Shown piece by piece: positions 13,096 to 36,427 of a DNA stretch of 64,000 nt. The stretch's first letter is position 1. Every line of letters starts with the position of its first letter. A program made the position numbers and the translations under genes. This stretch comes from Candidatus Pseudothioglobus aerophilus (GTDB lineage: Bacteria > Pseudomonadota > Gammaproteobacteria > PS1 > Pseudothioglobaceae): contig JACNFO010000039.1 of NCBI GenBank assembly GCA_014384565.1, positions 623-64,622 of the forward strand. The letters run 5' to 3'. The notes beneath the pieces are model-generated. The model worked only from the letters and a program-made list of their open reading frames with translations. It made no database searches and was not told the DNA's origin.

Positions 13096-13665
13096 TTACA
13101 AAACATTCTTCGCTGATACTTCAATAGCATGCAGCATTGAGACTCCGAAAGATCGCATTGTTAGAAGGACATAAGAATCGTCATCATCTCTATAAATTAT
13201 GGTCCCTATATGCTCCATAATAGTCCTAGAGACATTGCCAACAGAAAATACGTTTTTACTTAGATCGATTGGACAAATTCTCTCCAAAACATCTCTGCTT
13301 CTTGGGCCATTAACCCTAATCATCGCCCATGTATCAGATTGATCAGTATAGTAGGCAGGAGCATTTAATCTGTTTGCAATATTTACTTCCGCATCATTCC
13401 CTTCATAAGAAAAATAGGCTAGAACTTGATTTTTTTGTAAACGCCAAAGCGTTATAGACGAGTCTTTAGATTGAGTTGATCGCTCCATACCAGGAAGCGA
13501 TAAGCCACAAGATTTTGTCATTGATGACTCAATCTCTGTAAATTTGGACCTTGGTAATGCAACCATAACTAATGACTTGCCAACCACTTCTGAGACAGTT
13601 ACTCCTTCAAACTCATGCTCAGCACCATCAAGTGCAGATTCTACTACTAATTCATAATCAGACAC
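13096..13665 (-). CDS. soxG: Heterotetrameric sarcosine oxidase / N-methylglutamate dehydrogenase gamma subunit (SoxG/MgdD-like)
   Basis: DQSDTW, VNGPRSRDVLERICPIDL, MRSFG. True start is probably GTG at 13665, overlapping the alpha-subunit stop. Confidence 0.8.
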   Translation of the reverse strand: MSDYELVVESALDGAEHEFEGVTVSEVVGKSLVMVALPRSKFTEIESSMTKSCGLSLPGMERSTQSKDSSITLWRLQKNQVLAYFSYEGNDAEVNIANRLNAPAYYTDQSDTWAMIRVNGPRSRDVLERICPIDLSKNVFSVGNVSRTIMEHIGTIIYRDDDDSYVLLTMRSFGVSMLHAIEVSAKNVL

Positions 13666-16606
13666 GTAAACGCTCCCCTTCTGGATCAACAAAGTGAGGG
13701 CTGCATATTTCAACTTCAATATCATTGCCTCTCACTAAATCAACTGCTCGAACAAATTCGCCTTTGCGGCTGTGTCCGCTCTTAATAAAACCAATGCCAA
13801 TATAATGACCTAATATTGGTGAATAAATACAAGATGAAATCCAGCCCTGATCTGTTTCAGTCGATGGCTTATCTCTTAAGTTAAGGAGGTGTGAGCCAGC
13901 CTGAAGAAGGTCTTGAGTATTAACTGGTTTAAAGCCGACCATCTGCATGCGATCGTCACGAAGAAGATCTTCACGCAATCCAAGCTTATAACCTATAAAG
14001 TCTTTCTTGCCAGAAATCATTCCACCCATTCCTAAATCGTAGGCGCTAGTTTGACCATTAAGCTCTGGACCAGCAGCGTGACCTTTTTCAATTCGCATTA
14101 CGCCTAAGGCTTCAGTACCATAAGGCACAACATTAAACTCTTCACCCGCCTCCATTAGAGTTCTCATAAGTGAATCACCATAGCGAGTTTGAACAGCAAT
14201 TTCATAAGCCAACTCACCTGAAAATGATATTCTAAAGAGTCTTGCAGGTATTCCTCCGCAAACTGTAATCTCACCTGCAGCCATATAAGGGAATGCTTCA
14301 TTTGAAATATCACAATTTGAATCTACAACTTTTTGAAGTAACTTTCTAGAGTTTGGACCAGCAACTGCATACTGTGCAAACTGCTCCGTAACTGAAATCA
14401 TGTGTACATCAAGATCAGGCCATAAGCATTGATGACAAAACTGTAAATGGCGATAAACGTTAACAGCATTTGCAGTGGTTGTGGTCATTACAAAATGATT
14501 TTCAGAAAGTCTTGCGGTTGTTCCATCATCCATTACCATTCCATCTTCACGCAGCATTAGGCCATAACGAGTTTTACCCACTGGCACTTTTGCAAAAGCA
14601 TTTACATAGACTTTGTTAAGGAACTCTGAAACGTCAGCGCCTTTAATATCGATCTTACCGAGAGTTGTTACATCACAAATACCAACCGATGCTCTTGTTT
14701 GTTTTACCTCACGGTCAACAGATTCACGCCAATGAGTTTCTCCTGGTAATGGGAACCATTGAGAGCGATACCACATTCCAACCTCTACAAAAATAGCACC
14801 TTGCTCAACAGACCATTTATGGCTTGGAGTATATCGTGTTGGATAAAATTCCATTCCACGCCTTCTTCCAGCAAATGCCCCAATTGCTACTGGAGAATAC
14901 GGAGGCCTAAATATCGTAGTTCCAGTCTGTTCCATGGTTTGTCCCATATTATCGGCCATAATACCAATTCCAAGAACGTTAGCAGTTTTACCTTGGTCAG
15001 TAGCCATACCTAAGGTTGTATAGCGCTTAACATGCTCAACTGATTTAAATCCCTCTTGGTTTGCAAGCTTTATATCTTTTGCAGTAACGTCGTTTTGAAG
15101 ATCGACCCAAGCACGATTTTTTCCACTTGGAACCCCCCAGTTTGCAGTTACGCTATATGAAACTGTTTGAGTTTCAGCAGGATCTAATTCTTCAACTTTA
15201 TAGCCAAGATCGGAAGCGACAGCCAAACCCTCATTGTGCCCTTCAATAATTGCATCAGCCAAAACCATTGTTCCTTTAGCTCTTCCCGCAACTGACATTC
15301 CAGGTGGATTTGATTCATCTGGAATAAAAGAAGCAATCTTTTCGCTCCACTTTGGTATTCCGCGGTGATGACAAGTTAAATGAAGGTTTGGATTCCATCC
15401 ACCTGAAACAGCTAGGCAATCCGTGACTATTGACTTTCCATTAGTTAGTTTTATCGATTTTAGGGCTCTTCTACCTGAGGTATCTTCAACATCAGTACCC
15501 ATAAAAATTTCAGCACCCGGCACTCTTAGTACGGGACTAATTGAGCGAGAATCAATTACAGCAACGACTTTTATATTATTTAAAACCAAGTCTCTTGCTG
15601 TATTCCAACCATCATCATTATTTGTATAGACTGAAACTTTATCACCTGTAGCAACTGCAAATCTATTTGCATATGATCTAACGGCGCTTGCAAGCATAAC
15701 ACCTGGACGATCATTATTTCCAAATGCTATCGATCTTTCAATTGCGCCCGCACAAAGAATTGAGCGTTTGGCATAAATTCTCCAATTGACCTGACGAGGC
15801 TTATCTTTATATTCTCTAGCCTCTGACGCCCTATTTTCGATTGCACCATAAATGCCATGATCGTATACCCCAAAAATAGTTGTATCTGACATCAAGGTAA
15901 CGTTTTCCATTGCGCTCAAAGCAGCAACTGTATCTTTTGCCCATTTGCTTCCAGAAACGCCATTAATTTTTATGGACTCAGTGTTTAATCTTCCGCCCAT
16001 TAAAAAGTCTTCATCAGCAAGAATCACTTTTGCGCCGGAACTCGCAGCCGTTATGGCAGCAGATAATCCTGTTGCACCAGCACCAATAATTAAAATATCA
16101 CAATAGCGAAAACCTTTATCGTAAGTGTCAGGATCAGCCTCAGTTGAAAGAGTTCCTAGTCCGGCTGCATTTCGAATTGCAGGCTCATAAAACTTTTCCC
16201 AAAAAGCTTTAGGCCACATAAATGTTTTGTAATAAAAACCGGCACCAAGAAGTGGGGATAAAAAATCTGTAATAGCCATAAGATCAAATCCTAATGGACC
16301 TCTATGGTTTTGACTGTTTGCCTCTAATCCATTATATAACTCGGTAATAGTTGCCTTAGTGTTTGGCTCTTTATAGGCACCATTTCCAATCTCCATGATT
16401 GCATTTGGCTCCTCAGAGCCGGCAGTAACTATTCCGCGAGGACGATGGTATTTAAAAGAGCGACCAACCAATTTTTTGTTATTTGCGAGTAAGGCTGATG
16501 CAAGCGTATCACCTTCAAAACCAGTCAATATTTGACCATTAAAAGTAAAGCTTATAGATTTTTTTTGATTTACTAAACCGCCTTTGATTCTATTAATTTG
16601 ACTCAT
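13658..16606 (-). CDS. soxA: Heterotetrameric sarcosine oxidase / N-methylglutamate dehydrogenase alpha subunit (SoxA/MgdC-like)
   Basis: GDTLASALLAN, GRSFKYHRPRG, GAGATG, KRYTTLGMATDQGK, TFRPP-like IFRPPY; C-terminal GcvT-like THF-binding domain. Confidence 0.9.
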   Translation of the reverse strand: MSQINRIKGGLVNQKKSISFTFNGQILTGFEGDTLASALLANNKKLVGRSFKYHRPRGIVTAGSEEPNAIMEIGNGAYKEPNTKATITELYNGLEANSQNHRGPLGFDLMAITDFLSPLLGAGFYYKTFMWPKAFWEKFYEPAIRNAAGLGTLSTEADPDTYDKGFRYCDILIIGAGATGLSAAITAASSGAKVILADEDFLMGGRLNTESIKINGVSGSKWAKDTVAALSAMENVTLMSDTTIFGVYDHGIYGAIENRASEAREYKDKPRQVNWRIYAKRSILCAGAIERSIAFGNNDRPGVMLASAVRSYANRFAVATGDKVSVYTNNDDGWNTARDLVLNNIKVVAVIDSRSISPVLRVPGAEIFMGTDVEDTSGRRALKSIKLTNGKSIVTDCLAVSGGWNPNLHLTCHHRGIPKWSEKIASFIPDESNPPGMSVAGRAKGTMVLADAIIEGHNEGLAVASDLGYKVEELDPAETQTVSYSVTANWGVPSGKNRAWVDLQNDVTAKDIKLANQEGFKSVEHVKRYTTLGMATDQGKTANVLGIGIMADNMGQTMEQTGTTIFRPPYSPVAIGAFAGRRRGMEFYPTRYTPSHKWSVEQGAIFVEVGMWYRSQWFPLPGETHWRESVDREVKQTRASVGICDVTTLGKIDIKGADVSEFLNKVYVNAFAKVPVGKTRYGLMLREDGMVMDDGTTARLSENHFVMTTTTANAVNVYRHLQFCHQCLWPDLDVHMISVTEQFAQYAVAGPNSRKLLQKVVDSNCDISNEAFPYMAAGEITVCGGIPARLFRISFSGELAYEIAVQTRYGDSLMRTLMEAGEEFNVVPYGTEALGVMRIEKGHAAGPELNGQTSAYDLGMGGMISGKKDFIGYKLGLREDLLRDDRMQMVGFKPVNTQDLLQAGSHLLNLRDKPSTETDQGWISSCIYSPILGHYIGIGFIKSGHSRKGEFVRAVDLVRGNDIEVEICSPHFVDPEGERLRV

Positions 16607-16893
16607 TTGCCTCTACCTATTCCTCTTGAGACGTCTTGAGCTAACTCAACATTAATAATCTCATGTGATAAAGTGTTTCTAGTGACAACTAGCCAAGACT
16701 GATCGCCCTGCTCGTGGTACCAGAGCTCACGATGATCACCAGCAACATTTTCTCTAATGTACTGGTATTGATAAAAATCTTCAGCGGATGCATCATGCTC
16801 CCAATTACTGGGGCGATTTATAAGGTCAGCTGCACCTAAGTAAACAAATTCTTCAGAATCACGAGGACCAAGTAACGGGTGATTAATTATCAT
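16603..16893 (-). CDS. soxD: Sarcosine oxidase / MGD delta subunit (SoxD/MgdB-like), cysteine-free
   Basis: Sits between the beta and alpha genes; GPR..EF.Y.G, RP, RENVAG..RELWYH, VTRNTLSHEI. Confidence 0.8.
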   Translation of the reverse strand: MIINHPLLGPRDSEEFVYLGAADLINRPSNWEHDASAEDFYQYQYIRENVAGDHRELWYHEQGDQSWLVVTRNTLSHEIINVELAQDVSRGIGRGK

Positions 16894-16904
16894 ATTATGT
16901 CCTC

Positions 16905-18167
16905 CTAATGCAGATTTGGTTGAGCGCCAACACCTTTCTCATCAATCATTGCGCCACGCCTAAAGCGATCAAGTTTGTACGCTGTTGCTACTTCATGTGA
17001 GGAATTCGTTGCCAGCAAATGTGCGTAGCAGTATCCACTAGCAGGTGTCGCCTTAAAACCACCATAACACCATCCACCATTAAAAAATAATTCATCAATT
17101 TCAGTACTATCTATAAATGGAGAGCCGTCCATTGACATGTCCATAACCCCTCCCCACATTCTAAGTAATCTAGCACGCCCTATCATCGGCATAATAGCCA
17201 TACCGCCTGAACATACATCTTCAACAACAGGCAAGTTTCCACGTTGAGCATAGGTGTTATACCCATCAATATCGCCACCAAAAACAAGACCTCCTTTGTC
17301 AGACTGTGAGCAATAAAAGTGTCCAGCACCAAAAGTTATCACATTGTCCATTACTGGCTTAAGGCCTTCAGTTACAAAAGCTTGAAGAACATGACTTTCA
17401 ATAGGAAGTTTAATTCCAGCTTTCGCCATAACTCTTCCAGATGAACCTGCAACACAGACACCAACCCTTCCAGCCTTAATTTCACCTTTAGTTGTTTGAA
17501 CGCCCAAACATTTGCCATTTTCAATATTAAAGCCTGTAACCTCACAGTTTTGAATAATATCCACTCCAAGGTCACTAGCGCCTCTCGCGTACCCCCAAGC
17601 GACAGCATCATGACGAACCGTACCTCCACGAGGCTGCGATAAAGCAGCTTTAATTGGGAATCTTGGGTTGTCCATATCTAAAAATGGGTATCTTTCTTTT
17701 ACTTCTTTTGCCTCTATGAACTCACAACCCGCATCAGCAAATAACATACCGTTACCTCTTCTGATAAATGCATCACGTTGTGCGTCCGAATGAATTAGAT
17801 TCATAATACCGCGCTGTGAGACCATAGCGTTATAGTTTAAATCTTGCTCAAGATTTTCCCAAAGCTTGAGAGAAAATTCGTAAAAAGGCTCGTTACCAGG
17901 TAGTAAATAATTTGACCTGATAATGGTCGTATTTCTTCCCACATTACCACCACCTATCCAGCCTTTTTCAACAACAGCAACATTAGTAATACCATGATTT
18001 TTTGCTAAATAATAAGCAGTCGCTAAACCGTGTCCACCGCCACCAACGATGACAACATCATAACCGTCAGCTTTCGGCTCAGCATCACGCCAAGTTGGCT
18101 CCCAGCCTTTATGACCAGTCAGCGCTTCTTTGAGTACCTTAAAGCCAGAGTAGCGTGTTTTGCTCAC
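16905..18167 (-). CDS. soxB: Sarcosine oxidase / MGD beta subunit (SoxB/MgdA-like)
   Basis: GGGGHGLATAYYLAK, GRNTTIIRSNY, RHDAVAWGYA, NGGWCYGGFKATP. Confidence 0.9.
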   Translation of the reverse strand: MSKTRYSGFKVLKEALTGHKGWEPTWRDAEPKADGYDVVIVGGGGHGLATAYYLAKNHGITNVAVVEKGWIGGGNVGRNTTIIRSNYLLPGNEPFYEFSLKLWENLEQDLNYNAMVSQRGIMNLIHSDAQRDAFIRRGNGMLFADAGCEFIEAKEVKERYPFLDMDNPRFPIKAALSQPRGGTVRHDAVAWGYARGASDLGVDIIQNCEVTGFNIENGKCLGVQTTKGEIKAGRVGVCVAGSSGRVMAKAGIKLPIESHVLQAFVTEGLKPVMDNVITFGAGHFYCSQSDKGGLVFGGDIDGYNTYAQRGNLPVVEDVCSGGMAIMPMIGRARLLRMWGGVMDMSMDGSPFIDSTEIDELFFNGGWCYGGFKATPASGYCYAHLLATNSSHEVATAYKLDRFRRGAMIDEKGVGAQPNLH

Positions 18168-18171
18168 TTTT

Positions 18172-19907: not shown

Positions 19908-20798
19908 ATGTCTCGTAGATACTATAAATTACCACCTTTAACCTCTCTCGCAACCTTTGAGACTGCTGCTCGTCATAGAAGCTTTAAGGGTGCAGCTGAA
20001 GAGCTTGGCGTTACTCCAGGCGCAGTAAGTCATCAGATTAAGTTTTTAGAAACCGAGCTTGGTCTTTCACTATTCGATAGGAAGCATCACGGAAACAATT
20101 TAACCGATCATGGAGAATCTTTATTTGCTGTTCTTCAAAGCAGCTTTACTGCCATCTCTTCAACTCTTGCAAATCTTAGACGCTCTGCAACAGACAAAGA
20201 GGTAATTATAAGTGCTACCACTGCTATTTCTTTTATGTGGCTCCCTCCTCGATTAGCTGAATTTTGGAAGCAGCATCCCGAAATTCCTGTCAATCAACAC
20301 GTAACTGACAACCCTGACTCTCAAGGAGTAGCAGTTGACTTAAAAATTTGTTACGGTTTTGTTGAAAATGAATCTAATCAAAAACACACTCTTTTTCAAG
20401 ATGAACTTGTCCCATTATGTAGCCCTAGCTTTGCCAAAGAGTTTTTAAGCGCTTCTATTGAAGATTTAGCACAGGCACCTCTTATTCACCTTAGAGCTAA
20501 GGATAAAAATTGGTCTAACTGGTTTTCTTGGTTTAATGCTCTTGGATACAAAGGAAAAATCTCACCAGGAACTCATGTTAATAATTATATGATTGCCCTT
20601 CAAGCTGCTTCTGATGGAATGGGAATAGTCTTAGGGTGGAAGCGTCTGTGTAAACCTAAAATTGATAGTGGAGAGCTTGTTGTTCTGGGCGACACATCAA
20701 TACCAGCTCCATCTGCGATATACATTATGAGCGAAAAAGAAGATTTACTTCCGGAGAACGTCAAAATACTTAGGGATTTCCTTATTTCTAAGTCTTAA
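19908..20798 (+). CDS. LysR-family transcriptional regulator, GcvA-like
   Basis: LPPLTSLATFETAARHRSF..AAEELGVTPGAVSHQIKFLE HTH; WLPPRLAEFWKQHPEI. Confidence 0.9.
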   Translation: MSRRYYKLPPLTSLATFETAARHRSFKGAAEELGVTPGAVSHQIKFLETELGLSLFDRKHHGNNLTDHGESLFAVLQSSFTAISSTLANLRRSATDKEVIISATTAISFMWLPPRLAEFWKQHPEIPVNQHVTDNPDSQGVAVDLKICYGFVENESNQKHTLFQDELVPLCSPSFAKEFLSASIEDLAQAPLIHLRAKDKNWSNWFSWFNALGYKGKISPGTHVNNYMIALQAASDGMGIVLGWKRLCKPKIDSGELVVLGDTSIPAPSAIYIMSEKEDLLPENVKILRDFLISKS

Positions 20799-22072: not shown

Positions 22073-22906
22073 TTATAACCTTGCCTTGTAGGCTGTTAAA
22101 GTATTCTCAAGTAACACTGCAATAGTCATTGGCCCAACACCTCCAGGAACAGGAGAGATAGCAGAGACCATGCCTTTAACAGCTTCATAATCCACATCAC
22201 CCGTCAATGCCCCATTATCAAGCCTATTAATACCAACATCAATTACAACGGCGCCTTCTTTTATCCAGTCAGCGTTAACTAAGTTGGCAACTCCAGCAGC
22301 AGCAATAATAACATCTGCAGACTTAGTTTTAACCTTTATATCTTTTGTCTCCTTGTGGCAAACTTGAACTGTAGCGCCTGCATTGAGAAGTTCCATTGCC
22401 ATTGGCCTTCCCACAATATTTGAGGCGCCAATGATTACGCAATCCTTACCCCTAAGTTCACACTTGATAGAGGCTAACATTTTCATAACGCCTCTTGGAG
22501 TACAAGGACTAATGAATGGTTTTTTTAAGCTTAACTTGCCAATATTTTCACTACTAAAACCATCAACATCTTTTTCGGGAATAATCGACTCAATTATTAC
22601 ATTTGCATCAATGTGAGCAGGCAAAGGAAGTTGAACTAAGATGCCATCGATATTATTATTTACATTAAGCCTTTGAACTTCCGAGAGGAGCTCTTCTTGA
22701 GTAATATTTGCGGATTTATGAATCTGATCAGAATAAAAGCCAACCTGGACGCAAGCTTTAGACTTGTTTCTTACATAGACCTTAGAAGCTTCATCATCAC
22801 CAACTAAAATGACTGCAAGTCCGGGAGGTCTAGAATATTGCTTAACCTCATTAGCAATATTTTTTCTAAGATTTTCAGCAAGAACTCTGCCATCTATAAT
22901 CTTCAT
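22073..22906 (-). CDS. folD: Methylene-THF dehydrogenase/cyclohydrolase
   Basis: PGLAVILVG, GILVQLPLP, EKDVDG, PCTPRG, GASNIVGRP, PVPGGVGPMT. Confidence 0.96.
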   Translation of the reverse strand: MKIIDGRVLAENLRKNIANEVKQYSRPPGLAVILVGDDEASKVYVRNKSKACVQVGFYSDQIHKSANITQEELLSEVQRLNVNNNIDGILVQLPLPAHIDANVIIESIIPEKDVDGFSSENIGKLSLKKPFISPCTPRGVMKMLASIKCELRGKDCVIIGASNIVGRPMAMELLNAGATVQVCHKETKDIKVKTKSADVIIAAAGVANLVNADWIKEGAVVIDVGINRLDNGALTGDVDYEAVKGMVSAISPVPGGVGPMTIAVLLENTLTAYKARL

Positions 22907-26679: not shown

Positions 26680-27636
26680 TTATTTGGTGAAAGCCATCCA
26701 AACATCCTCGTTATCCGCAAGCCACTTAGCTGCAGCATCCTCATGAGACATCTTATCAATATCAACTAGAGCAGCCATCTGACCGATCATGCCAGTCGTG
26801 AAGTCTATCTTAGTGTATGCCTTATACGCCATTGGATGAGTCTTAGGGAACTTATAGTTCGCCGCTTTCTTCAACCAACCTCTAGGAGATCCACAAGCCC
26901 CGTCACCACCTTCTGTTTCACGGCAACCAAAGAAGTATGGAGGAAACTCTATGAAGTAAAAACCATCACTATCCGTAAAGTTAGGTGTCCAGTTAAATAT
27001 AATTATGCCTTCTCCAGCAGCTTCTGCAGAATCAATAGCGGCCCAAAGGGCGTCTGCACTACCAGTTTGTTTATAAGTATATTCATCATCTAAACCAAGA
27101 GCTCCAATACGATCTTCAAATAGATTCTTTCCGGTTTCAGCATCAACATGCCAAGGACCGTCTAAGAAAACACCTTTACCACCAGAATCGGCAGTGGCAA
27201 AAACTGATCCACAACCTTTAAGAGCCTCCCAATTTGGAAGTCCAGGACATAGATTTTTCTCTATTACGAAGTTAGGAACGCCCATATCTTCAATAGTCAA
27301 GGCAGAATGGGTACCAGCTTCTATTAGACCGCCCTTCTCCATGGCTGTATAGTAAGCGTTGCCAAAGGCTCCTTCCCAAACTTCGTGAGATATAGTAACG
27401 TCTCCAAGACGAATCGATTCATATACACCTGACGAGTCAGCAGGAACGTAAGATACGTTGTTACCCATAGACTCAAAAATACCACCAATAACGTAGGACA
27501 TAACCACTTGGCTTGACCAGTTGTGAATTGGTATAACGATTGGCTTTGAAGAGTCAGCTGCAAGAGCTTGACCCGATACAGAAGCTAAAGTCATCGTTAA
27601 AGCAGCAGCAGCTACTTTACTTGTAAACTTATTCAT
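26680..27636 (-). CDS. tmoX: TMAO-binding periplasmic protein (TmoX-like)
   Basis: Signal peptide; DSSKPIVIPIHNWSSQ, VYESIRLGDV, HEVWE, LCPGLP, ADALWA, FNWTPNF. These match TmoX proteins as I recall them; lies next to tdm. Confidence 0.8.
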   Translation of the reverse strand: MNKFTSKVAAAALTMTLASVSGQALAADSSKPIVIPIHNWSSQVVMSYVIGGIFESMGNNVSYVPADSSGVYESIRLGDVTISHEVWEGAFGNAYYTAMEKGGLIEAGTHSALTIEDMGVPNFVIEKNLCPGLPNWEALKGCGSVFATADSGGKGVFLDGPWHVDAETGKNLFEDRIGALGLDDEYTYKQTGSADALWAAIDSAEAAGEGIIIFNWTPNFTDSDGFYFIEFPPYFFGCRETEGGDGACGSPRGWLKKAANYKFPKTHPMAYKAYTKIDFTTGMIGQMAALVDIDKMSHEDAAAKWLADNEDVWMAFTK

Positions 27637-27800: not shown

Positions 27801-30101
27801 CTACATTCTTACTCGAGTTTTTTCAGGATCATAAAATGGAAAGCGGACCACCTTTGCAGATAAACGCTTATGGTGTCCATCGAGCTTTCCTACTTCAACT
27901 TCATTATCAATCTCTGACGCTGAAACTGAAATTCGACATAATGCAATGTTCTTTTTAAGTATCGGCGAACGTGTTGCACTTGTAATAATTCCAACTTGTT
28001 GTTTTCCAATATACACCCCATCACCATGGAGCGCAACTTCATTAGAATCTAATTCTAACCCAACTAGAACTCTTTGTGGAGAATTCTTCCGAAGAATTAA
28101 TGATTCCTTACCAGAAAAATCTTCCTCTTTTGTTTTCAATGGAACCGTAAACGCAATGCCTGCTTCAAATGGGTCCGTTTGATCACAGAACTCATAACCG
28201 GCAAAAATTAAACCTGCCTCAATTCTTAGCATATCAAGAGCATTCAATCCTAATGGACATATACCAAACTCTTCTCCAGCCTCTGCAATAGCATCCCAAA
28301 CGGCTTCACAATCATTAGGGTGTGCAAACACTTCATAACCTAGCTCACCAGAATATCCAGTCCTAGAAACCATCACAGGTATTCCAAACTCGCCGCCAAT
28401 TCTACCAATGGTAAAACGGAACCACTTAAGATCCTCAAGACTCGTTTGGAGTTTTGGCGTCCAGATAATTTTCTCTAAAGTTTCGCGGCTCTTTGGACCC
28501 TGAACAGCAACGTTGTGAAGCTGGTCTGTTGAAGACTTAACACGGACATCAAACCCTTTTTCATTTGCAATTTTTCGAAGCAGTTTCCCGCCATCATCCG
28601 AGCCACCAATCCATCTAAAATTATTTTCATCAAGACGGAAAAGCGTTCCATCATCAACCATACATCCATTGTCATAGCACATTGCAGAATAGACAACCTG
28701 GCCAATCGCAAGCTTTCTAACATCTTTGGTAATAGCATATTGCATTAATGCTTCAGCATCTTGACCGTAAACTTCAAACTTTCTAAGAGGTGCAAGGTCA
28801 ATCATTGCTACCCCTTCACGGCACTGCCAATATTCTTTAATTGCACCTAAATTATCGTATTCAAGTGGAAGCCAATAGCCATTATAGTTATCAAAGTTTT
28901 TAGTTAGCTTAGAGGTATTTTTATGAAAACCAGTTTCTTTAGTCATAGTTGGTATTGATTGTGGATCAGGCCTAAAAGCCGTAGCCGATGAGAAATTATT
29001 GGATTTATTATAAATTCTAACGTGAATGTCTGTTGGATTCCAGCCATTAGAAGAGGTCGTATCATCTGGACAAGCTGATGAAACGCATACCAGGTCATCA
29101 ACAGCTCTAAATAATACATAGTCACCAGGTCTAGACCAAGAAACATCTGAGCTTAATGAATGACACTCTTCAATAGCAGTATTAAAAAAGAGATTAACAG
29201 CTGCCCAATTTTGTCTTGGAGTAACCCCGTATTTAGAAAGAGATTTATTGAAATTATCAGTACAACTAATATGTCCAGGGAATCCCCTATCATCATAATA
29301 TTTGGCGTTGCATGCAAGGCCAAAGGTGTCATGTCTACACACAGTGTCTTGTATTACTTCTACTAGTGGCACTGAATTTTGGTTGTAGAACTTATCGTGA
29401 GTCCCTGGCGCTGGGTAACTTGCCAGCATCTGCGACCTTGTCACTGTTGGATCAAGGCAAAGCTCTAGATTATTTTTTAAATCTTCTTCTAAAAATGCTT
29501 GAAAATCTGAGCATTGCTGGCCCTCAACATCAATAATTTGAATATATTCACCGGCCTTTACTTTATAGGCAACCGCAGAGCTATTATTTATCCGAATCTC
29601 TTTAGATGTTTTGGCAAGGGGCTCAGGAAGTCTCTCAGAGGGGTTTGATGGATTTGAGCGAGATACATTAATTAAAATCTCTGTAGGAGAATTTTGTTTA
29701 TCTACTATCATTGGCCCACCTTTTGCATCAAATACACATAAGGCATCATTTTTAATATTAAAAGATTGACGAGAATCAGCAGGGTTTGATGCTGAAAAAA
29801 GCTCCGTACCATTTAGTTCTTTTGAATCAATTTGGTTGTGTTTTATAATTGCCTTAAACATATCCGAACAATCATCTACACTTATTTCAGATGCATTACT
29901 TTTAGGTTTTGAATTCCAGCTTAAAGTTGATAATACTGATAATTTTTCAGCATTAAAAGCAAGAACACTGCACTGTTGATCTCCCTCTACATCGACTATC
30001 TCTACTGAATCGCCACTCTTTAAGTCAATTGAAATTGCCTCACCACCAAGAAGTTGGTAGGTTTCACAATCGCCATCATATTTAATATTAGAAACTCTCA
30101 T
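27801..30101 (-). CDS. tdm: Trimethylamine N-oxide demethylase (DUF1989 + GcvT-like domain)
   Basis: QQCSDF, RHDTFGLAC..YY...GFPGHISC.DNF, WSRPGDYVL, SSACPDD metal motifs; C-terminal aminomethyltransferase domain (DDGT, RTGYSGELGYE). Confidence 0.87.
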   Translation of the reverse strand: MRVSNIKYDGDCETYQLLGGEAISIDLKSGDSVEIVDVEGDQQCSVLAFNAEKLSVLSTLSWNSKPKSNASEISVDDCSDMFKAIIKHNQIDSKELNGTELFSASNPADSRQSFNIKNDALCVFDAKGGPMIVDKQNSPTEILINVSRSNPSNPSERLPEPLAKTSKEIRINNSSAVAYKVKAGEYIQIIDVEGQQCSDFQAFLEEDLKNNLELCLDPTVTRSQMLASYPAPGTHDKFYNQNSVPLVEVIQDTVCRHDTFGLACNAKYYDDRGFPGHISCTDNFNKSLSKYGVTPRQNWAAVNLFFNTAIEECHSLSSDVSWSRPGDYVLFRAVDDLVCVSSACPDDTTSSNGWNPTDIHVRIYNKSNNFSSATAFRPDPQSIPTMTKETGFHKNTSKLTKNFDNYNGYWLPLEYDNLGAIKEYWQCREGVAMIDLAPLRKFEVYGQDAEALMQYAITKDVRKLAIGQVVYSAMCYDNGCMVDDGTLFRLDENNFRWIGGSDDGGKLLRKIANEKGFDVRVKSSTDQLHNVAVQGPKSRETLEKIIWTPKLQTSLEDLKWFRFTIGRIGGEFGIPVMVSRTGYSGELGYEVFAHPNDCEAVWDAIAEAGEEFGICPLGLNALDMLRIEAGLIFAGYEFCDQTDPFEAGIAFTVPLKTKEEDFSGKESLILRKNSPQRVLVGLELDSNEVALHGDGVYIGKQQVGIITSATRSPILKKNIALCRISVSASEIDNEVEVGKLDGHHKRLSAKVVRFPFYDPEKTRVRM

Positions 30102-30129
30102 TTAGTAGAATAATTTAACAGATAATTTG

Positions 30130-30157: not shown

Positions 30158-30204
30158 TTTGAAAATATTCATGCTTCGATGAAATGAATTGCAAGCTAAA
30201 AAAA

Positions 30205-30246
30205 TAGTTTATACGGCACTCCAGGGGGTGGAATGCCGAAAAACTA
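30205..30246 (-). terminator. GC-rich hairpin downstream of the GS-like/mgsABC/orf operon
   Basis: Minus strand CGGCATTCCA-CCCCC-TGGAGTGCCG with AT-rich flanking arms, then TATTTTTT. Confidence 0.5.
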
Positions 30247-30305
30247 AGGAGTTAAGATTCAGAGCCTTGCTCTAAACTAACCCCTTTAGAAACCACTTAC
30301 AGTAG

Positions 30306-30692: not shown

Positions 30693-30706
30693 AATAACTC
30701 CTTATC

Positions 30707-32041
30707 TTAAAAACGTGTCATATCAGGACGACCAACCGTGTGCTGTGAACCTGCAATAGGAACTTGTGCACAAGCTGAAGCCTCCATAGTAAGAGCAGCT
30801 AGATCTTCTGGCTCTAATGAGTGTATATTTGTCTTACCACAGGCACGAGCCATCATTTGAGTCTCGATTGCTAGTGTATGTAAGAAGTTGTATACACGCT
30901 CTGATGCTTCATCCGGATCCAGACGCTTTCTAAGTTCAGGATCTTGAGTTGCAACACCAACCGGGCAGCGCCCAGTATGACAGTGGTAACATTCACCGGC
31001 TTTAACGCCCATTTCAGCTTCATAATTAGCTTCAGGAATATCTCTATTACAGTTAAGCGCCATAAGCGATGAGTGGCCAATCGCAACTGCGTCAGCACCA
31101 AGTGCAACGGCTTTAGCTACGTCACCACCATTTCGAATACCACCCGCATAAACTAAAGAAATTCTGCCGCTCATCCCAACATCATCAATCGCCCTTCGAG
31201 CTTGACGAATTGCTGCAATTCCTGGTACTCCAGTTTCTTCTGTCGCAATATGTGGTCCAGCAGCAGTGCCGCCTTCCATTCCATCAATATAAATACTATC
31301 ACAACCAGTCTTAGCGGCCATACGTACATCATCGTATACACGCGCTGCACCAAGTTTAAGCTGAATTGGAATCTGACCATCTGTCGCTTCACGAATCTCT
31401 TCAATCTTTAGCGCCAAGTCATCTGGTCCAAGCCAGTCTGGATGTCTCGCAGGAGATCGCTGATCAATACCGGCAGGTAAAGAACGCATTTCAGCAACCT
31501 GGTCTGTAACTTTTTGGCCCATTAGGTGTCCACCTAAACCAACCTTACAGCCTTGACCAATAAAAAATTCAACACTATCCGCTAAACGTAAATGTTGTGG
31601 GTTAAAGCCATAACGCGACTGAATACACTGGTAGAACCACTTACTTGAGTAGCGTCTCTCATCTGGAATCATTCCGCCCTCACCTGAACAGGTGGCAGTT
31701 CCGGCCATCGTAGCACCGCGAGCTAGAGCTGTTTTAGCCTCATAACTCAATGCACCAAAGCTCATTCCAGTAATGTAAATTGGAATGTCCAGCTCTAATG
31801 GTCTTGGAGCCTCTGGCCCAATAATTGTCTTAGTTAAGCATTTTTCTCTATAACCCTCAATAACAAAACGAGTTAACGTTCCAGGCATGAAAGTCAAGTC
31901 ATCCCATGTTGGAATTTTTTTAAATAGAGAGAAACCTCTCATTCTGTATCTACCCAAATCAGACTTGATGTGAATATCATCCATCACCGCTTTAGGGAAG
32001 ATAAAACTTTTTCCTAGTCTATGGTTTTCTGAATCACTCAT
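30707..32041 (-). CDS. mgsC: N-methylglutamate synthase FMN/Fe-S subunit (MgsC/GlxD-like)
   Basis: GMSFGALS, GEGGM, IGQG.K.G.GG.L.GQKV, RHPDW.GPDDL, GGIRNGGDVAKA, CYHCHTGRCPVG Fe-S motif. Confidence 0.8.
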   Translation of the reverse strand: MSDSENHRLGKSFIFPKAVMDDIHIKSDLGRYRMRGFSLFKKIPTWDDLTFMPGTLTRFVIEGYREKCLTKTIIGPEAPRPLELDIPIYITGMSFGALSYEAKTALARGATMAGTATCSGEGGMIPDERRYSSKWFYQCIQSRYGFNPQHLRLADSVEFFIGQGCKVGLGGHLMGQKVTDQVAEMRSLPAGIDQRSPARHPDWLGPDDLALKIEEIREATDGQIPIQLKLGAARVYDDVRMAAKTGCDSIYIDGMEGGTAAGPHIATEETGVPGIAAIRQARRAIDDVGMSGRISLVYAGGIRNGGDVAKAVALGADAVAIGHSSLMALNCNRDIPEANYEAEMGVKAGECYHCHTGRCPVGVATQDPELRKRLDPDEASERVYNFLHTLAIETQMMARACGKTNIHSLEPEDLAALTMEASACAQVPIAGSQHTVGRPDMTRF

Positions 32042-32076
32042 AATATTTCCTTTTGTTTAATTTGTTAAAAATGCTA

Positions 32077-32919
32077 TTAAAGAATTAGTTTCTTTTCATT
32101 AGGCTCTAAGTTAGCGTAGTTCCATAACATTTTTCCAGAAACATGCTTTTGCATTTTCTCAACGCCTCTAGGAGTCTTCATACCATAAAGGGCCAATTTC
32201 TCTGTTAGGTAACGAACATCAAGCTCTGTCATATCAGCCTGCACGCAGTCAACACCAAGCTCTTCAACCTCACCGCCAACATAAATAGTGCCGTCATACA
32301 TAGAGTCACCTAAGTTCATTCCAGCATCACCTAAAACAATCATACGACCACGCTGCATCATGAATCCAGAAAATGCACCTGTCTTACCGCCGACAATAAT
32401 TGTGCCGCCCTTCTGATCAATACCAGTACGAGCGCCAACACTGCCTTTACAGACAAGATCACCGCCACGAATAGCAGCGCCAAAAGTAGAACCAGCATTT
32501 TTGTCAATGACAACAGTACCCGCCATCATGTTTTCTGCACACGACCAACCGACACGACCTTTAATATGGACATTAGGTCCATCAATTAAGCCGCAACCAA
32601 AGTAACCTAAACTATCTGAGAAAGTTAAGTTAAGTCTGTTTAAGATGCCAACGCCAACTCCATGCCTAGACATAGGGTTATCAACAGTAATATCACCAAT
32701 ACCTTTTTCCATTAGCTCTCTGATTTCACGATTAATCTCTCTTGGCGTCATGTCAAGTGCGTCAATCGTTGCACTCTTAGAAGTGTCAACATCAAATGAG
32801 TGGAAATATGTTAAATTTTCACTTTCGTCAATAGAGAAGAATTTTTTCTGCGTTCTTCCTTTTAACTGCTCGTCGTGAAGTCCCATCTCCTGGGACGTTT
32901 CCTTCCTTAGTTCTGCCAT
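32077..32919 (-). CDS. mgsB: N-methylglutamate synthase GXGXG subunit (MgsB/GlxC-like), with about 50 aa N-terminal extension
   Basis: GltB-C/FwdC beta-helix repeats (AENMMAG, GARTGI..KGG, GDAG..LGDSMY). Confidence 0.8.
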   Translation of the reverse strand: MAELRKETSQEMGLHDEQLKGRTQKKFFSIDESENLTYFHSFDVDTSKSATIDALDMTPREINREIRELMEKGIGDITVDNPMSRHGVGVGILNRLNLTFSDSLGYFGCGLIDGPNVHIKGRVGWSCAENMMAGTVVIDKNAGSTFGAAIRGGDLVCKGSVGARTGIDQKGGTIIVGGKTGAFSGFMMQRGRMIVLGDAGMNLGDSMYDGTIYVGGEVEELGVDCVQADMTELDVRYLTEKLALYGMKTPRGVEKMQKHVSGKMLWNYANLEPNEKKLIL

Positions 32920-33845
32920 ACTTTTACCTCTCCGTGATAGGGGTCAAATGTCTCAATACGATGGTCAAATAAAGTTCTAATTGCAACCTCTTCAGAAGCT
33001 AGTGCAATCATATCTTCACCTTCGTATACAACCATTGGTTTTGCAGCCATAACATCCTTGGCCATACCAAGTTGATCTTTAGTTGCAACCAAATATGTGA
33101 AAACGCCATCAAGGTAATCTATTGAACCTTTCATAGCAGTTTCTAAATCGTCACCTTGGCTCATTCTATCGGCAAGATAAACGGCAATAAGTTCTGAGTC
33201 GCAGTTCGATGAAAAACGGTGGCCAGAGCGCTCAAGTGATCGTCTATTTGTCCAATAGTTTGTAAGCTGCCCGTTATGAACTACTGCAACGTCACTAAAG
33301 GGATATGCCCAGTAAGGGTGTGCCGAGCGAATATCTACGTCAGACTCGGTCGCCATCCTGGTATGTCCAATTCCGTGAGTGCCATTAAAGTCATTTAAGC
33401 CGTACTGATCAGAAACTACCGATGCATCTCCTAAGTCTTTAACTAACTCAAGTGAGTTACCGATAGATAAAATTTCAACGCCTTCAACATCTTCAACAAA
33501 GTCGGCAACTTTTTTCATGTCACCTGAAAACTCTACCTCATAACGATGGGCATACTCAGTTGGGCTCTCTTTCTTTACAACCTTAACACCTAACTCAGTA
33601 AGTCTTGAGTTGACTGTCTCCAAGCGATCTTTGATAGTCGCATGGATATCATAGCTTCCTTCTAGATCAGCAGCCTCAGCAACCTTAAATCTTAATATTT
33701 GATTTCCATTGTCTTTGCCGTACATTGCATATCCAGTTGAGTCTGGACCTCTATGCTTTAAAGCCTGTAGCATTGAAGTCATCTGCTGACCAATGTTTAC
33801 GCCTTTTCCAGCTTTTTTATGAATAATTCCTGCTATTCCGCACAT
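32907..33845 (-). CDS. mgsA: N-methylglutamate synthase class II amidotransferase subunit (MgsA/GlxB-like)
   Basis: N-terminal MCGIAG nucleophile, HRGPDS, GHTRMAT, HNGQLTN, DSE. Confidence 0.8.
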   Translation of the reverse strand: MCGIAGIIHKKAGKGVNIGQQMTSMLQALKHRGPDSTGYAMYGKDNGNQILRFKVAEAADLEGSYDIHATIKDRLETVNSRLTELGVKVVKKESPTEYAHRYEVEFSGDMKKVADFVEDVEGVEILSIGNSLELVKDLGDASVVSDQYGLNDFNGTHGIGHTRMATESDVDIRSAHPYWAYPFSDVAVVHNGQLTNYWTNRRSLERSGHRFSSNCDSELIAVYLADRMSQGDDLETAMKGSIDYLDGVFTYLVATKDQLGMAKDVMAAKPMVVYEGEDMIALASEEVAIRTLFDHRIETFDPYHGEVKVWQN

Positions 33846-33866
33846 AAAATAATCTCCCTTTTCCCG

Positions 33867-33892
33867 AAAAATTGCCCACCGTTAAGTGGGCA
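33867..33892 (-). terminator. Intra-operon hairpin between the GS-like gene and mgsA
   Basis: TGCCCAC-N6-GTGGGCA perfect stem, followed on the minus strand by ATTTTT. Confidence 0.5.
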
Positions 33893-33919
33893 CTCTAAAA
33901 ACCTTAAAAAAACTTAGCC

Positions 33920-35395: not shown

Positions 35396-35499
35396 TTAAT
35401 CTCTCCGAAAAAATAAAAAAAATCTCTATTAAAGATTTACCCCCTAAGCATGCTTTTATTTTGATTCGTAAGATATAAACCAAAACAGAAACACTAATG

Positions 35500-35588
35500 A
35501 ATTTGCTGCCGTTTTAGAAATAGAGGTCAAATAAATTACTATATAAATGACTCTTTTTGACTCCAAATAGATGGAGTAACAGCAAATT
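35500..35588 (-). ncRNA. Candidate structured 5' leader (three-stem junction) of the GS-like/mgs operon
   Basis: AATTTGCTG/CAGCAAATT 9-bp closing stem encloses two hairpins (ACTCCA/TGGAGT and AGAGTCA/TGACCTCT); it starts right after the predicted promoter. Confidence 0.35.
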
Positions 35589-35596
35589 AAAGTTTG

Positions 35597-35626
35597 AGTA
35601 TACGCCTAATGATATTCCATTGTCAA
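35597..35626 (-). promoter_or_regulatory. Near-consensus sigma70 promoter for the GS-like/mgsABC operon
   Basis: Minus strand TTGACA-N18-TATACT(CAAA). Confidence 0.7.
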
Positions 35627-35776
35627 GAAATTTTATTGATTATAAAGAAATATAATAAAGTGTTGATTTTCTTCTAATTAATTGCAGTAAAACAAGAAAA
35701 AAGTTTGAATTTAGAGTGGGTTTAGGGAAAGATAATTTTGAAAAAAAAGTCAAAATTATTAGGACTTAAAAGTAAA

Positions 35777-36427
35777 CTAATCCGAATTATTTGAGCAGAT
35801 AACGGTTAGAAACTGGCACTCATCACTGATGATTTTTTTAGGGCCATGTGGCTTATCAGAATCAAAGTATATCGAGTCACCCTTCTGGAAGTGATATATC
35901 TTGGTACCGTAGTAATAATCCATTTCACCTTTGAGCATATAAATAAACTCAACCCCTTTATGCTGAAAGTCAGGAAAATCATAATCTCTTGAAGTTACCG
36001 TAATAAGGCAGGGCTCTACTTTAAGAGAGCCGCTCACGTTGTGACCGAGTAATTGGTAGTGCCTACTTTCATCGGAGCCCGCCCTCTCTATTGTCAAACC
36101 ATTACCTGATTTAATAAAGGTTGGCTCTACGTCTTTATCATGCTGTTTAAATAGTGACGTAATTGAAATATTAAGGGCGTGACAAATCAACTGAATTGTT
36201 TTTAAGGAGGCGCTAATTTGACCATTCTCAATTTTTGAGAGCATGCTTGCAGATAATAGTGATTGCTTTGAGAGTTGCTGCAAAGTAACGCCAGCACTTT
36301 TTCGAGAAATTCTGACTTGCTTTCCAATCGAGGCCTCTAGCTGTTTATCCGTGCCAAAACTGGGAAGATTTTTGTTAACTATGGATACGCTTTGTTCTAT
36401 TTGCGCAGTATTTATAATTGAAGACAT
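35777..36427 (-). CDS. XRE-family HTH + cupin transcriptional regulator
   Basis: TLQQLSKQSLLSASMLSKIENGQISASL HTH; cupin FQHKGVEFIYMLKGE...GDSIYFDSDKPH. Confidence 0.87.
   Translation of the reverse strand: MSSIINTAQIEQSVSIVNKNLPSFGTDKQLEASIGKQVRISRKSAGVTLQQLSKQSLLSASMLSKIENGQISASLKTIQLICHALNISITSLFKQHDKDVEPTFIKSGNGLTIERAGSDESRHYQLLGHNVSGSLKVEPCLITVTSRDYDFPDFQHKGVEFIYMLKGEMDYYYGTKIYHFQKGDSIYFDSDKPHGPKKIISDECQFLTVICSNNSD

Follow-up and report, generated by a model that had tools for sequence, protein, structure and literature searches.

We analysed a stretch of 64,000 nucleotides (64 kb, about 39% G+C; hereafter the window) from Candidatus Pseudothioglobus aerophilus and found in it the trimethylamine N-oxide (TMAO), methylated-amine and betaine demethylation locus of this SUP05-clade gammaproteobacterium, an island that carries a glutamine synthetase (GS)-like gene and Mgs-like genes which are not the canonical ones. 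The GS-like protein of 491 amino acids (GS491) and three non-canonical Mgs subunits, marked here with primes (MgsA', MgsB' and MgsC'), form a set that we term type-1; a protein of 128 amino acids (orf128) follows them, and a flavoprotein of 448 amino acids (DAO448) lies further along the island. We found that these genes are parts of one conserved module, which, among the candidates at hand, is the best for a step still missing from the breakdown of methylamines in the ocean, namely the conversion of dimethylamine (DMA).

Gene content and expression of the island

Genes were assigned from open reading frame (ORF) calling, Pfam and NCBIfam across the 64-kb window (Table 1). The canonical reference is the annotated plasmid cluster of Rhizobium leguminosarum, in which the order is Tdm ... 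Tmm, DUF3445/DmmC, PDR reductase/DmmB, DmmA, DmmD, purU, glnT/GmaS, mgsCBA, helix-turn-helix (HTH) gene, glxA and mgdABCD. All genes named in a first-pass annotation of this DNA were recovered where it had placed them, and the island as it had been listed stands, with two additions: the BHMT gene and the PuuR-like HTH-cupin regulator, which also belong to it. The regulator is 42% identical to the HTH gene within the canonical glnT-mgsABC cluster.

Table 1. Features of the window, with position, strand and supporting matches
Feature	Position	Strand	Support
EamA-family transporter genes, three in tandem	3582-6269	-	
GFA-family gene	9676-10071	+	PF04828; about 3 kb from soxG
soxG	13096-13665/13725	-	NCBIfam match weak, 63 bits (cutoff 144); expected position
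soxA	13658-16606	-	TIGR01372, 1297 bits (cutoff 1164)
soxD	16603-16893	-	Pfam PF04267
soxB	16905-18167	-	TIGR01373, 645 bits (cutoff 529)
DAO448, DAO-family flavoprotein, 448 aa	18172-19518	-	Pfam DAO, residues 9-229
LysR, GcvA-like	19908-20798	+	
Rieske oxygenase, CntA/GbcA-like, 386 aa	20906-22066	+	Pfam Rieske and Ring_hydroxyl_A
folD	22073-22906	-	Pfam THF_DHG_CYH and THF_DHG_CYH_C
tmoW, fused double permease, 814 aa	23029-25473	-	BPD_transp_1 twice; NCBIfam choline/ProW-type matches
tmoV, ATPase	25484-26533	-	ABC_tran; NCBIfam ProV-type match
tmoX, substrate-binding protein of a TMAO/betaine-type ABC importer	26680-27636	-	Pfam OpuAC
Tdm, TMAO demethylase	27801-30101	-	DUF1989, GCV_T and GCV_T_C; NF053776, 1107.4 bits (cutoff 1100)
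orf128, 128 aa	30306-30692	-	no Pfam or NCBIfam match
mgsC'	30707-32041	-	Glu_synthase/FMN domain
mgsB'	32077-32919	-	GXGXG
mgsA'	32907-33845	-	GATase_6/7; N-terminal MCGIAG
Hairpin, G+C-rich, followed by a T run	33873-33892	-	within the 74-nucleotide gap between GS491 and mgsA'
GS491, GS-like, 491 aa	33920-35395	-	Pfam Gln-synt_C PF00120, 276 bits
HTH-cupin regulator, PuuR-like, upstream of GS491	35777-36427	-	HTH_3 and Cupin_2; PuuR model 42 bits
BHMT	36521-37537	-	NF005718, 462 bits (cutoff 338)
Amt-family transporter, TTG start	42024-43433	-	Pfam Ammonium_transp
PLP (pyridoxal phosphate) decarboxylase	45653-47017		
PuuD-like class-I amidotransferase/Peptidase_C26	47465-48184	-	next to the PLP decarboxylase
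Subtilase with Calx-beta domain, 964 aa, TTG start	48316-51210	-	amid housekeeping genes

By their assigned functions, TmoX, TmoV and TmoW would import TMAO, Tdm would convert it to DMA and a one-carbon unit, and FolD would oxidise one-carbon units. The BHMT reaction turns glycine betaine into dimethylglycine. The window Tdm is 53% identical to that of R. leguminosarum, tmoX is 60-70% identical to the tdm-adjacent tmoX of SAR11 and Rhodobacterales loci, and the fused permease tmoW has homologues of 660 and 811 amino acids in two other loci (L010 and L004, respectively). We found the gene order of the island again in 23 independent metagenome contigs and in two related species (L011 and L012), and window proteins are also encoded on contigs from Saanich Inlet and other marine metagenomes. 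Proteins identical or nearly so to those of the window bear the names Candidatus Thioglobus or Pseudothioglobus sp., which points to a SUP05/ARCTIC96BD-19-type origin. The gene arrangement is not due to chance.

Four subunits are encoded in the soxBDAG set, of which soxB and soxA score above the cutoffs of their curated models. The soxB product is 66% identical to MgdA of the canonical glnT-mgsABC-glxA-mgd cluster; against solved beta subunits of sarcosine oxidase it scores 417-422 bits. The set is best described, on these matches, as a putative Mgd-type heterotetrameric N-methyl amino acid dehydrogenase linked to tetrahydrofolate (THF). As the first-pass annotation had noted, the flavin adenine dinucleotide (FAD) enzyme gene, DAO448, stops 4 nucleotides before the start of soxB. 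The distance from mgsC' to orf128 is 14 nucleotides.

The island is present in four marine metatranscriptome runs, in which expression was gauged, crudely, from contig depth. Of the genes in the island, tmoX has the deepest transcript coverage. In the two runs of one sample, GS491-MgsA'B'C'-orf128 ranks second (about 70-420), followed by DAO448-soxB (about 20-40) and then tdm, while in the other two runs the depth of the GS491 operon is comparable to that of tdm. RNA contigs span the junction of soxB and DAO448. The depth of the Rieske gene is 0-4 in all four runs, with neighbours at 10-400.

Several features of the region stand beside these genes. The hairpin between GS491 and mgsA' may be an attenuator or terminator; region-wide, the counts of terminator-like and promoter sites are not above those in shuffled sequence, and an Rfam scan of the whole window returned no riboswitch or other RNA family. 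Contigs from two metatranscriptome runs carry a 3-nucleotide insertion (TGA on the + strand) at position 32027, a few codons into mgsC' and thus in its N-terminus, which is a population-level length variation. The window also has three tandem EamA-family genes and a subtilase gene (Table 1).

Next to this gene set, the window holds neither a trimethylamine (TMA) monooxygenase nor a DMA monooxygenase, as the first-pass annotation had claimed and as tblastn and Pfam bear out. With R. leguminosarum queries (E<1e-3), Tmm, DmmA, DmmB and DmmC were found nowhere in the whole 64 kb, and the DmmD query matched only the paralogous folate domains of Tdm and SoxA. The remaining long ORFs of the window are, by Pfam, housekeeping genes with no DMA- or TMA-dehydrogenase-type protein among them. 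The step from DMA to monomethylamine (MMA) is not encoded within the window.

This gap is not new: both the gap and one candidate gene, the SAR11_1304 family, are already known. The dmmDABC genes were reported missing from every SAR11 and from the abundant marine Gamma- and Deltaproteobacteria with tmm, tdm and gmaS, and this was termed a "metabolic bottleneck" (Lidbury 2017, PMC5520151). In the same study, Ca. Thioglobus singularis-related sequences of tmm and tdm were noted in metagenomes, metagenomic dmm was mainly Roseobacter-related and dmm transcripts were undetected in ocean metatranscriptomes; Thioglobus/SUP05 is not listed in its supplementary table. Earlier work had placed a "monomeric sarcosine oxidase", SAR11_1304, next to SAR11_1303, now known as Tdm (Sun 2011, PMC3160333). 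A later study ranked SAR11_1304 second among all proteins by strength of induction when nitrogen is limiting and suggested that it is an amine demethylase, in a passage that also points out that the genome is without a DMA monooxygenase (Smith 2013, PMC3870248).

The GS491 module and its distribution

GS491 is 27.7% identical to the canonical GmaS/GlnT of R. leguminosarum and scores 308 bits against the type III model TIGR03105, below the cutoff of 469.6. Its match to an archaeal true GS (224 bits) exceeds those to solved GmaS structures (9qur, 183 bits; 7cql, 165 bits). GS491 thus appears to fall outside the GmaS grouping with the GS catalytic fold in place; the divergence remarked on in the first-pass annotation is real and had been understated. 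In an alignment of eight clade members with seven canonical GmaS and one true GS, the GS491 clade has two private insertions, one of about 10 residues at the Asp50' loop and one of about 18 or more residues at the Glu flap (about 40 between two HMMER blocks). In RhGmaS, Asp50' is replaced by Ala and the flap Glu by Trp. The Asp50' loop and the Glu flap set amine binding and deprotonation in GS and GmaS (PMC7948447).

The three Mgs' subunits have the same architecture as MgsABC (Ntn amidotransferase, GXGXG and flavin mononucleotide (FMN) domains) and the same gene order after the ligase, and MgsA' keeps the catalytic Cys1 in its N-terminal MCGIAG. MgsA', MgsB' and MgsC' are, respectively, 33%, 40% and 51% identical to their canonical counterparts, while type-1 copies in other phyla are 58-69%, 60-69% and 76-89% identical to those of the window. 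As judged from sequence comparison, the Mgs' subunits are not orthologues of the characterised MgsABC and form a separate paralogue group; the set as a whole is paralogous because GS491 is only 28% identical to canonical GmaS. Accordingly, the earlier view that the GS and Mgs genes of the island are not the canonical ones is upheld. We propose that GS491 belongs with neither GS nor GmaS and represents a third type of gamma-glutamyl ligase among the GS-like enzymes, and a candidate gamma-glutamyl-(di)methylamide synthetase.

A plasmid collection contains no true GS491 orthologue, its best relatives being 52-53% identical (Paracoccus and Ruegeria). These stem from Paracoccus sp. TOH plasmid p2 (L097) and a plasmid of Ruegeria sp. 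SCSIO 43209 (L098), each with two adjacent GS-like genes of which one is the relative of GS491. The Ruegeria cluster also encodes a cytochrome P450, a 2Fe-2S ferredoxin, an ABC importer and a type-1 GATase, and the Paracoccus cluster two aldehyde dehydrogenases, a type-1 GATase, a gamma-glutamyl-GABA hydrolase-family gene, an FAD-binding oxidoreductase and glyA. Both look like Ipu/Puu-like pathways of alkylamine gamma-glutamylation, in keeping with a ligase whose substrate is a small alkylamine and not MMA. In the same collection, 135 records carry a full-length Tdm and 147 a DmmC that spans at least 80% of its length; none carries DAO448.

We examined the neighbourhood of DAO448 in 80 species loci, out of at least 586 species that encode it, with 10-kb flanks; loci were labelled by tblastn with window proteins and canonical reference proteins, and neighbouring ORFs were clustered all against all. 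GS491 lies within 10 kb of DAO448 in 34 of these loci and directly downstream of it in 33, the downstream gene being 68-77% identical to GS491. The full order DAO448-GS491-MgsA'-MgsB'-MgsC'-orf128 was found in 29 loci, and most of the remainder end at contig edges. The co-occurrence of the FAD oxidoreductase, the 128-residue protein and this GS clade, which the first-pass annotation had only suggested looking for, is thus that of a single operon, in loci of which none has DmmA or DmmC. The lineages that carry the module are Alpha- and Gammaproteobacteria and a few others. Collectively, these results show that GS491, the mgsABC-like genes, orf128 and DAO448 are parts of one conserved module.

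In the window this operon is split: DAO448 precedes soxBDAG, and GS491-MgsA'B'C'-orf128 adjoins Tdm. A search anchored on orf128 recovered the same operon in further Gammaproteobacteria, as well as a variant, GntR-GS491-MgsA'B'C'-orf128-orf183-Tdm, which like the window has no DAO448 nearby. Frequent partners of the module are a divergent GntR/FCD regulator (with DAO448 in 27 of 80 loci), a PuuD-like C26 amidotransferase (13), a CN-hydrolase (11) and an Amt transporter (11). Furthermore, a protein of about 185 amino acids without Pfam match, with the N-terminal motif FLGWQCRxRQHAVR, accompanies orf128 in most type-1 operons (for example L093 10579-11130, L095 10430-11011 and L021 17360-17932); tblastn labelled it in about 30 loci and found none in the window (E<1e-5).

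Three further window genes have counterparts near the module. In 11 of the 80 loci an Amt gene that is 40-73% identical to the window Amt neighbours the type-1 operon, and SAR11 loci are among them, with the order Tdm-DAO448-GS491-mgsA'B'C'-orf128-Amt. The window Amt is of the kind that accompanies the module elsewhere and is possibly a (methyl)ammonium transporter. By position, the module-flanking Amt genes correspond to SAR11_1310, an amt described as a phylogenetic outlier with a riboswitch-like leader (Smith 2013, PMC3870248). The window C26 gene is 34-38% identical to the C26 gene that lies upstream of GntR-DAO448 in most Rhodobacterales and Rhizobiaceae loci having one, and its product may be a gamma-glutamyl-amide hydrolase related to the module. 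A GFA-family gene is located near soxG in the window, and in another gammaproteobacterium a GFA gene directly follows the operon DAO448-GS491-Mgs'-orf128-orf193 (L095, 11028-11474; L096, 4593-5039).

The small protein orf128 has 7705 homologues, and 68 of its 128 positions are invariant among 24 sequences. It follows mgsC' in 29 of the 80 species loci and is a cytoplasmic protein. No Pfam, NCBIfam or PDB sequence matches it, and its AlphaFold2 (AF2) model (predicted local distance difference test, pLDDT, 67) has no fold match in the PDB, the best Foldseek hit being at E=0.96. The extreme conservation suggests a subunit or obligate partner, and orf128 is possibly an extra subunit of the complex.

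DAO448, its substrate and the fate of dimethylamine

DAO448 belongs to a family with 199 representatives at E<1e-30 in a library of 1.8 billion cluster representatives, and its homologues are 60-71% identical across classes. The tdm-adjacent SAR11 homologues are 61-63% identical to DAO448, and SAR11_1304 is of the same family. Curated models of sarcosine oxidases match it far below their cutoffs (soxA_mon 37 bits, cutoff 480; soxB 61 bits, cutoff 529). The best PDB sequence match is the beta subunit of heterotetrameric sarcosine oxidase (52 bits), which aligns with the N-terminal half of DAO448, and the Pfam DAO domain likewise covers only residues 9-229. Foldseek with the DAO448 model returned 3ad9_B as best match (E=1e-13), and also SoxB, proline dehydrogenase, dimethylglycine dehydrogenase (DMGDH), dimethylglycine oxidase (DMGO) and monomeric sarcosine oxidase (MSOX).

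Two residues bear on the substrate. In a HMMER alignment, R62 (in VVRNNY) and K404 (in HGYKM) stand opposite the IIRSNY and GGFK motifs of 2gag_B, which we take to correspond to the carboxylate-binding Arg52 and Lys348 of MSOX, and both are invariant in 48 members of the DAO448 family. Their retention, at an identity of about 20-25%, favours an N-methylated amino acid over free DMA. Of the 80 loci, 27 have a heterotetrameric sox/mgd set no more than 10 kb from DAO448. We propose DAO448 as a candidate first-methyl demethylase, which would convert an N,N-dimethyl to an N-methyl amino acid. In a SAR11 single-cell genome (L089), an ORF of 115 amino acids without Pfam match (11408-11755) is located between DAO448 and mgdA; it was considered as a possible orf128 and rejected, as the two are not homologous.

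The module is preferentially linked to tdm, tmm, tmoX and mgd. Tdm, Tmm or TmoX was found within 10 kb in 18 of the 34 loci with GS491 and in 6 of the 46 without it (odds ratio 7.5, Fisher p=1.7e-4), and neither DmmA nor DmmC was found in any of the 80. For the position of dmmDABC we compared the clusters of Ruegeria, Rhizobium and Paracoccus. With MMA as nitrogen source a dmmDABC mutant of R. pomeroyi grows, but with DMA, TMA or TMAO it does not. The canonical cluster of Rhizobium has dmm placed between tmm and gmaS, and in R. pomeroyi dmmDABC sits by a GlxA/TmaR-like regulator and mgd (PMC13390433); the Rhodobacterales loci have the module beside a GlxA/TmaR-like regulator and a divergent mgd operon. 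Of the three unexplained genes that the first-pass annotation had placed in the DMA gap, two therefore stand, since in other loci the FAD and 128-residue genes are co-operonic with the GS and Mgs genes at the place of dmmDABC, and the Rieske gene is a poor candidate.

In SAR11 the type-1 and canonical sets occur side by side. The single-cell locus L043 carries Tmm, TmoWVX, Tdm, DAO448, GS491, MgsA'B'C', orf128, Amt and a canonical GmaS, and three other SAR11 single-cell genomes (L045, L049 and L087) have a similar layout. The type-1 operon has a canonical GmaS as its neighbour in L043, L049, L080, L081 and L087, in L080 together with a canonical MgsC. The annotation of strain HTCC1062 gives 1303 as Tdm, 1304 as sox, 1305 as glnT, 1308 as gltB2 and 1310 as amt, followed by 1313-1315 as glxBCD and 1316 as glnT (PMC3870248, PMC3160333), so that both sets are kept, as SAR11_1304-1309 and SAR11_1313-1316. 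That such a streamlined genome keeps both argues for different substrates and against redundancy. In a literature search we found no description of the family-wide operon, nor of SAR11_1305-1309 as partners of SAR11_1304.

On this basis we tentatively propose a route, quite possible and still short of probable, in which the module carries DMA on glutamate. In the first step GS491 would spend ATP to join DMA with the gamma-carboxyl group of glutamate, the product being gamma-glutamyl-dimethylamide. MgsA' would then free the amine into MgsB'C', where an FMN-dependent exchange onto the alpha-carbon, perhaps with the help of orf128, would yield N,N-dimethylglutamate and NH3. DAO448 would take the first methyl group, producing N-methylglutamate and formaldehyde, and the Mgd-type SoxBDAG, translationally coupled to DAO448 in the window, would take the second as methylene-THF and return glutamate. 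FolD would oxidise the methylene-THF from Tdm and SoxA. The GFA-family genes, near the island and behind the operon in L095 and L096, would suit the release of formaldehyde by DAO448. Such a route would not need free MMA and would be the glutamate analogue of the conversion of dimethylglycine to sarcosine and glycine. It corresponds to one of two options in the first-pass annotation and ranks first here, but the betaine contexts described below make a dimethylglycine oxidase a serious rival.

Several observations weigh against the glutamate route. In 46 of the 80 loci DAO448 has no GS491 in its 10-kb flanks, and its neighbours there often include a Rieske oxygenase, a BCCT transporter, BHMT, an aldehyde dehydrogenase, GMC oxidoreductases or a GcvT-like protein encoded on its own; such betaine-type surroundings speak for dimethylglycine as the substrate. 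The AF2 model of DAO448, built on an alignment of 36 sequences, has a mean pLDDT of 60, with the substrate domain (252-382) below 50, which makes it unreliable as a guide to the pocket. At the Asp50' and flap positions of GS491, HMMER gives Asp and Glu, whereas MAFFT gives Tyr and a non-conserved position, and for DMA a Km of 16 mM was measured with the one GmaS assayed on it (PMC7948447). Under nitrogen limitation of HTCC1062, SAR11_1304 rises strongly while SAR11_1305 and SAR11_1308 fall slightly (PMC3870248), and these genes are thus not simply co-regulated. A literature search on gamma-glutamyl-dimethylamide, N,N-dimethylglutamate and dimethylglutamine brought up nothing but biomedical and natural-product papers on other matters, with no mention of the first two compounds in bacteria. 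Finally, in a neighbour-joining tree of DAO448, sequences from operon and Rieske contexts interleave, which makes a common or closely related substrate likely. A simple unifying idea is that DAO448 acts on an N,N-dimethyl amino acid and leaves the monomethyl product to Sox/Mgd, the substrate being dimethylglycine in betaine loci and N,N-dimethylglutamate with the GS491 module.

It is possible, if doubtful, that DAO448 is a dimethylglycine oxidase, or an oxidase of another N,N-dimethyl amino acid, with the module handling MMA or another alkylamine, the DMA made by Tdm left unused and the bottleneck real. Within the island, BHMT or the Rieske oxygenase would then supply dimethylglycine, which DAO448 would convert to sarcosine and SoxBDAG to glycine. 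The presence of BHMT and of a CntA/GbcA-like Rieske gene in the island is consistent with this, as are the loci of Fodinicurvata (L024: PDR reductase, Rieske, Aldedh, DAO448), Cocleimonas (L055: Tdm, BHMT-like, Aldedh, Rieske, DAO448, LysR, reductase) and Hellea (L052: formate dehydrogenase, Rieske, GlxA, DAO448, with a stand-alone GcvT-like protein and a BCCT transporter). GMC (choline-dehydrogenase-like) genes flank DAO448 in L041, L050, L051 and L065, several of them Gammaproteobacteria, and the presumed carboxylate-binding pair is conserved. Consistent with unused DMA, no evidence of DMA oxidation by SAR11 was reported (Lidbury 2017, PMC5520151). However, a dimethylglycine oxidase leaves unexplained both why DAO448 heads a GS491 operon in 33 species and why tdm, tmm and tmoX are enriched there. 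Dedicated genes, dmgdh and sardh, are already present in SAR11 (PMC3160333), the soxB to which DAO448 is coupled is of the Mgd type, and induction of SAR11_1304 by nitrogen limitation would be unexpected for a step that frees no nitrogen.

Rather unlikely, in our estimation, is that DAO448 itself oxidises DMA to MMA and formaldehyde, with GS491-MgsA'B'C' as a second, isofunctional MMA route that SoxBDAG finishes. Gene order would then be pathway order (Tdm-DAO448-GS491-Mgs' in SAR11, Tdm-DAO448-Mgd in L089), and the loci with DAO448 beside tdm or mgd and no GS491 (L017, L029, L070, L074 and L089) would be accounted for. The induction of SAR11_1304 under nitrogen limitation and suggestions in the literature fit as well (PMC3870248, PMC5520151), and the GFA genes near the island and after the operon in L095 and L096 would fit a step that releases free formaldehyde. 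Against direct oxidation of DMA stand the invariant R62 and K404, taken as carboxylate-binding by analogy with sarcosine oxidases; moreover, GS491 and Mgs' would be redundant with the canonical GmaS/MgsABC that SAR11 also keeps, and the loop insertions of GS491 would have no explanation. 

That the gap is only apparent, with dmmDABC, a DMA dehydrogenase or a canonical gmaS elsewhere in the genome and an unrelated role for the module, is improbable. The window covers 64 kb of a genome of about 1.8 Mb, as estimated from related Pseudothioglobus, and a tmm related to Ca. Thioglobus singularis exists (Lidbury 2017, PMC5520151), yet tmm is not among the genes of the window, so that genes of the pathway can be dispersed; but dmmDABC is reported absent from abundant marine Gammaproteobacteria (PMC5520151), and no DAO448 locus has dmm.

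Direct demethylation of DMA by the Rieske oxygenase, the other part of the alternative option in the first-pass annotation, is very improbable. Rieske N-demethylases exist (GbcA; 4qup, labelled "Monoxygenase; demethylase", is among the PDB matches), and the gene lies between the DAO448-sox operon and tmo-tdm. However, the closest solved relative is the carnitine monooxygenase CntA (6y8j, full length, 111 bits), and with 111 bits against a cutoff of 670 in the GbcA equivalog model the protein is not a GbcA orthologue. Its stretch ycesyhlpwvhp aligns with ymecyhcgpahp of CntA, which we take to hold the bridging Glu and His iron ligands. No ORF in the window encodes an FAD/NAD/Fer2 reductase, a partner that is found beside the homologues in L024 and L055, and the gene has nearly no transcripts. 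Homologues 51-61% identical are paired with DAO448 in six loci outside SUP05 (L024, L038, L052, L055, L057 and L069); the gene is present in 8 of 80 DAO448 loci in all, four of which also have an aldehyde dehydrogenase (one being the SUP05 relative L011) and two a PDR reductase. These partners, together with BHMT and BCCT, point to a betaine or quaternary amine that yields an aldehyde, and the Rieske substrate is probably of the betaine type and not DMA.

Two known systems were considered and set aside. The homarine operon homABCDER, which also feeds Mgd (PMC13236597), comprises different proteins (homA about 700 nucleotides, homB about 1700 nucleotides). Gamma-glutamylation of polyamines in SAR11 was described without mention of the present genes (PMC8437039).

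Taken together, both the module as a conserved unit and the way in which it relates to the canonical pathway appear to be new, and with them the long-standing DMA question becomes directly testable. The accepted picture since 2017 is that the most abundant TMAO and TMA users of the ocean, being without dmmDABC, cannot degrade DMA. It is conceivable, though on the doubtful side, that SAR11, SUP05 and other dmm-less bacteria consume DMA by an undescribed glutamate-carrier pathway, with orf128 as an extra subunit, instead of excreting it. If this were true, the "DMA bottleneck" of the surface ocean would largely vanish, N,N-dimethylglutamate would join the central metabolites of the marine nitrogen cycle as a new member, and estimates of DMA flux, marker surveys based on gmaS and dmm and the nitrogen nutrition of SAR11 and SUP05 would need revising. 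DMA is a precursor of a climate-relevant marine gas. Even if the DMA reading is wrong, this study delineates, in very abundant bacteria, a compact set of six to eight genes that is very strongly conserved, and shows that the "GmaS/Mgs" genes found in islands of this kind differ from those that have been characterised.

How the module relates to described pathways

In its three types of enzyme the module agrees with the GmaS/MgsABC/MgdABCD pathway of Methylocella silvestris, Methyloversatilis universalis, Ruegeria pomeroyi and Paracoccus aminophilus, and shares with it the kind of HTH-cupin regulator; the window soxB is 66% identical to a canonical MgdA. It differs in its ligase, with 28% identity and loop insertions of its own, and in its Mgs' subunits, at 33-51% a separate paralogue group. 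Compared with the canonical R. leguminosarum cluster, the module adds DAO448 and orf128 as constant members and, frequently, a CN-hydrolase and orf185.

The logic by which a GS-like ligase activates an amine as gamma-glutamyl amide is that of the Puu (putrescine) and Ipu (isopropylamine) pathways, and the likeness extends to the PuuR-like regulator and to the PuuD-like C26 amidotransferases near the module. In Puu and Ipu, however, the alkyl part is modified and the amide hydrolysed, with neither a GltS-like transfer to the alpha-nitrogen nor a Sox-type demethylase. Dimethylglycine oxidase or dehydrogenase combined with heterotetrameric sarcosine oxidase likewise performs two flavin-dependent demethylations, of a tertiary and then a secondary amine, and the predicted fold of DAO448 is closest to SoxB, DMGO, DMGDH and MSOX; unlike dimethylglycine oxidase, DAO448 has no fused folate (GcvT) domain, and Hellea has a separate GcvT-like gene after DAO448. 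With CntAB and GbcAB the window Rieske protein shares the Rieske and catalytic domains and, for CntA, a full-length alignment, but the relationship is distant (111 bits), there is no adjacent reductase, and the gene is almost unexpressed in the metatranscriptomes examined.

SAR11_1304 of HTCC1062, of the same family as DAO448, induced by nitrogen limitation and suspected to be an amine demethylase, is the closest described counterpart of the flavoprotein; in the window DAO448 is detached from the GS491 operon and placed in front of soxBDAG. DmmDABC (Lidbury 2017; Zhu 2014; Dziewit 2015), finally, is matched by the module in its place, between tdm/tmm and gmaS/mgd and by a GlxA/TmaR-type regulator. 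On the glutamate route the two would do the same physiological job with no relationship in sequence or cofactor: Dmm consists of a DUF3445 protein, a PDR/VanB reductase and the THF-binding DmmD, the module of a ligase, amidotransferase/FMN and FAD enzymes. Whereas Dmm yields free MMA, the route proposed for the module would proceed through glutamate-bound intermediates.

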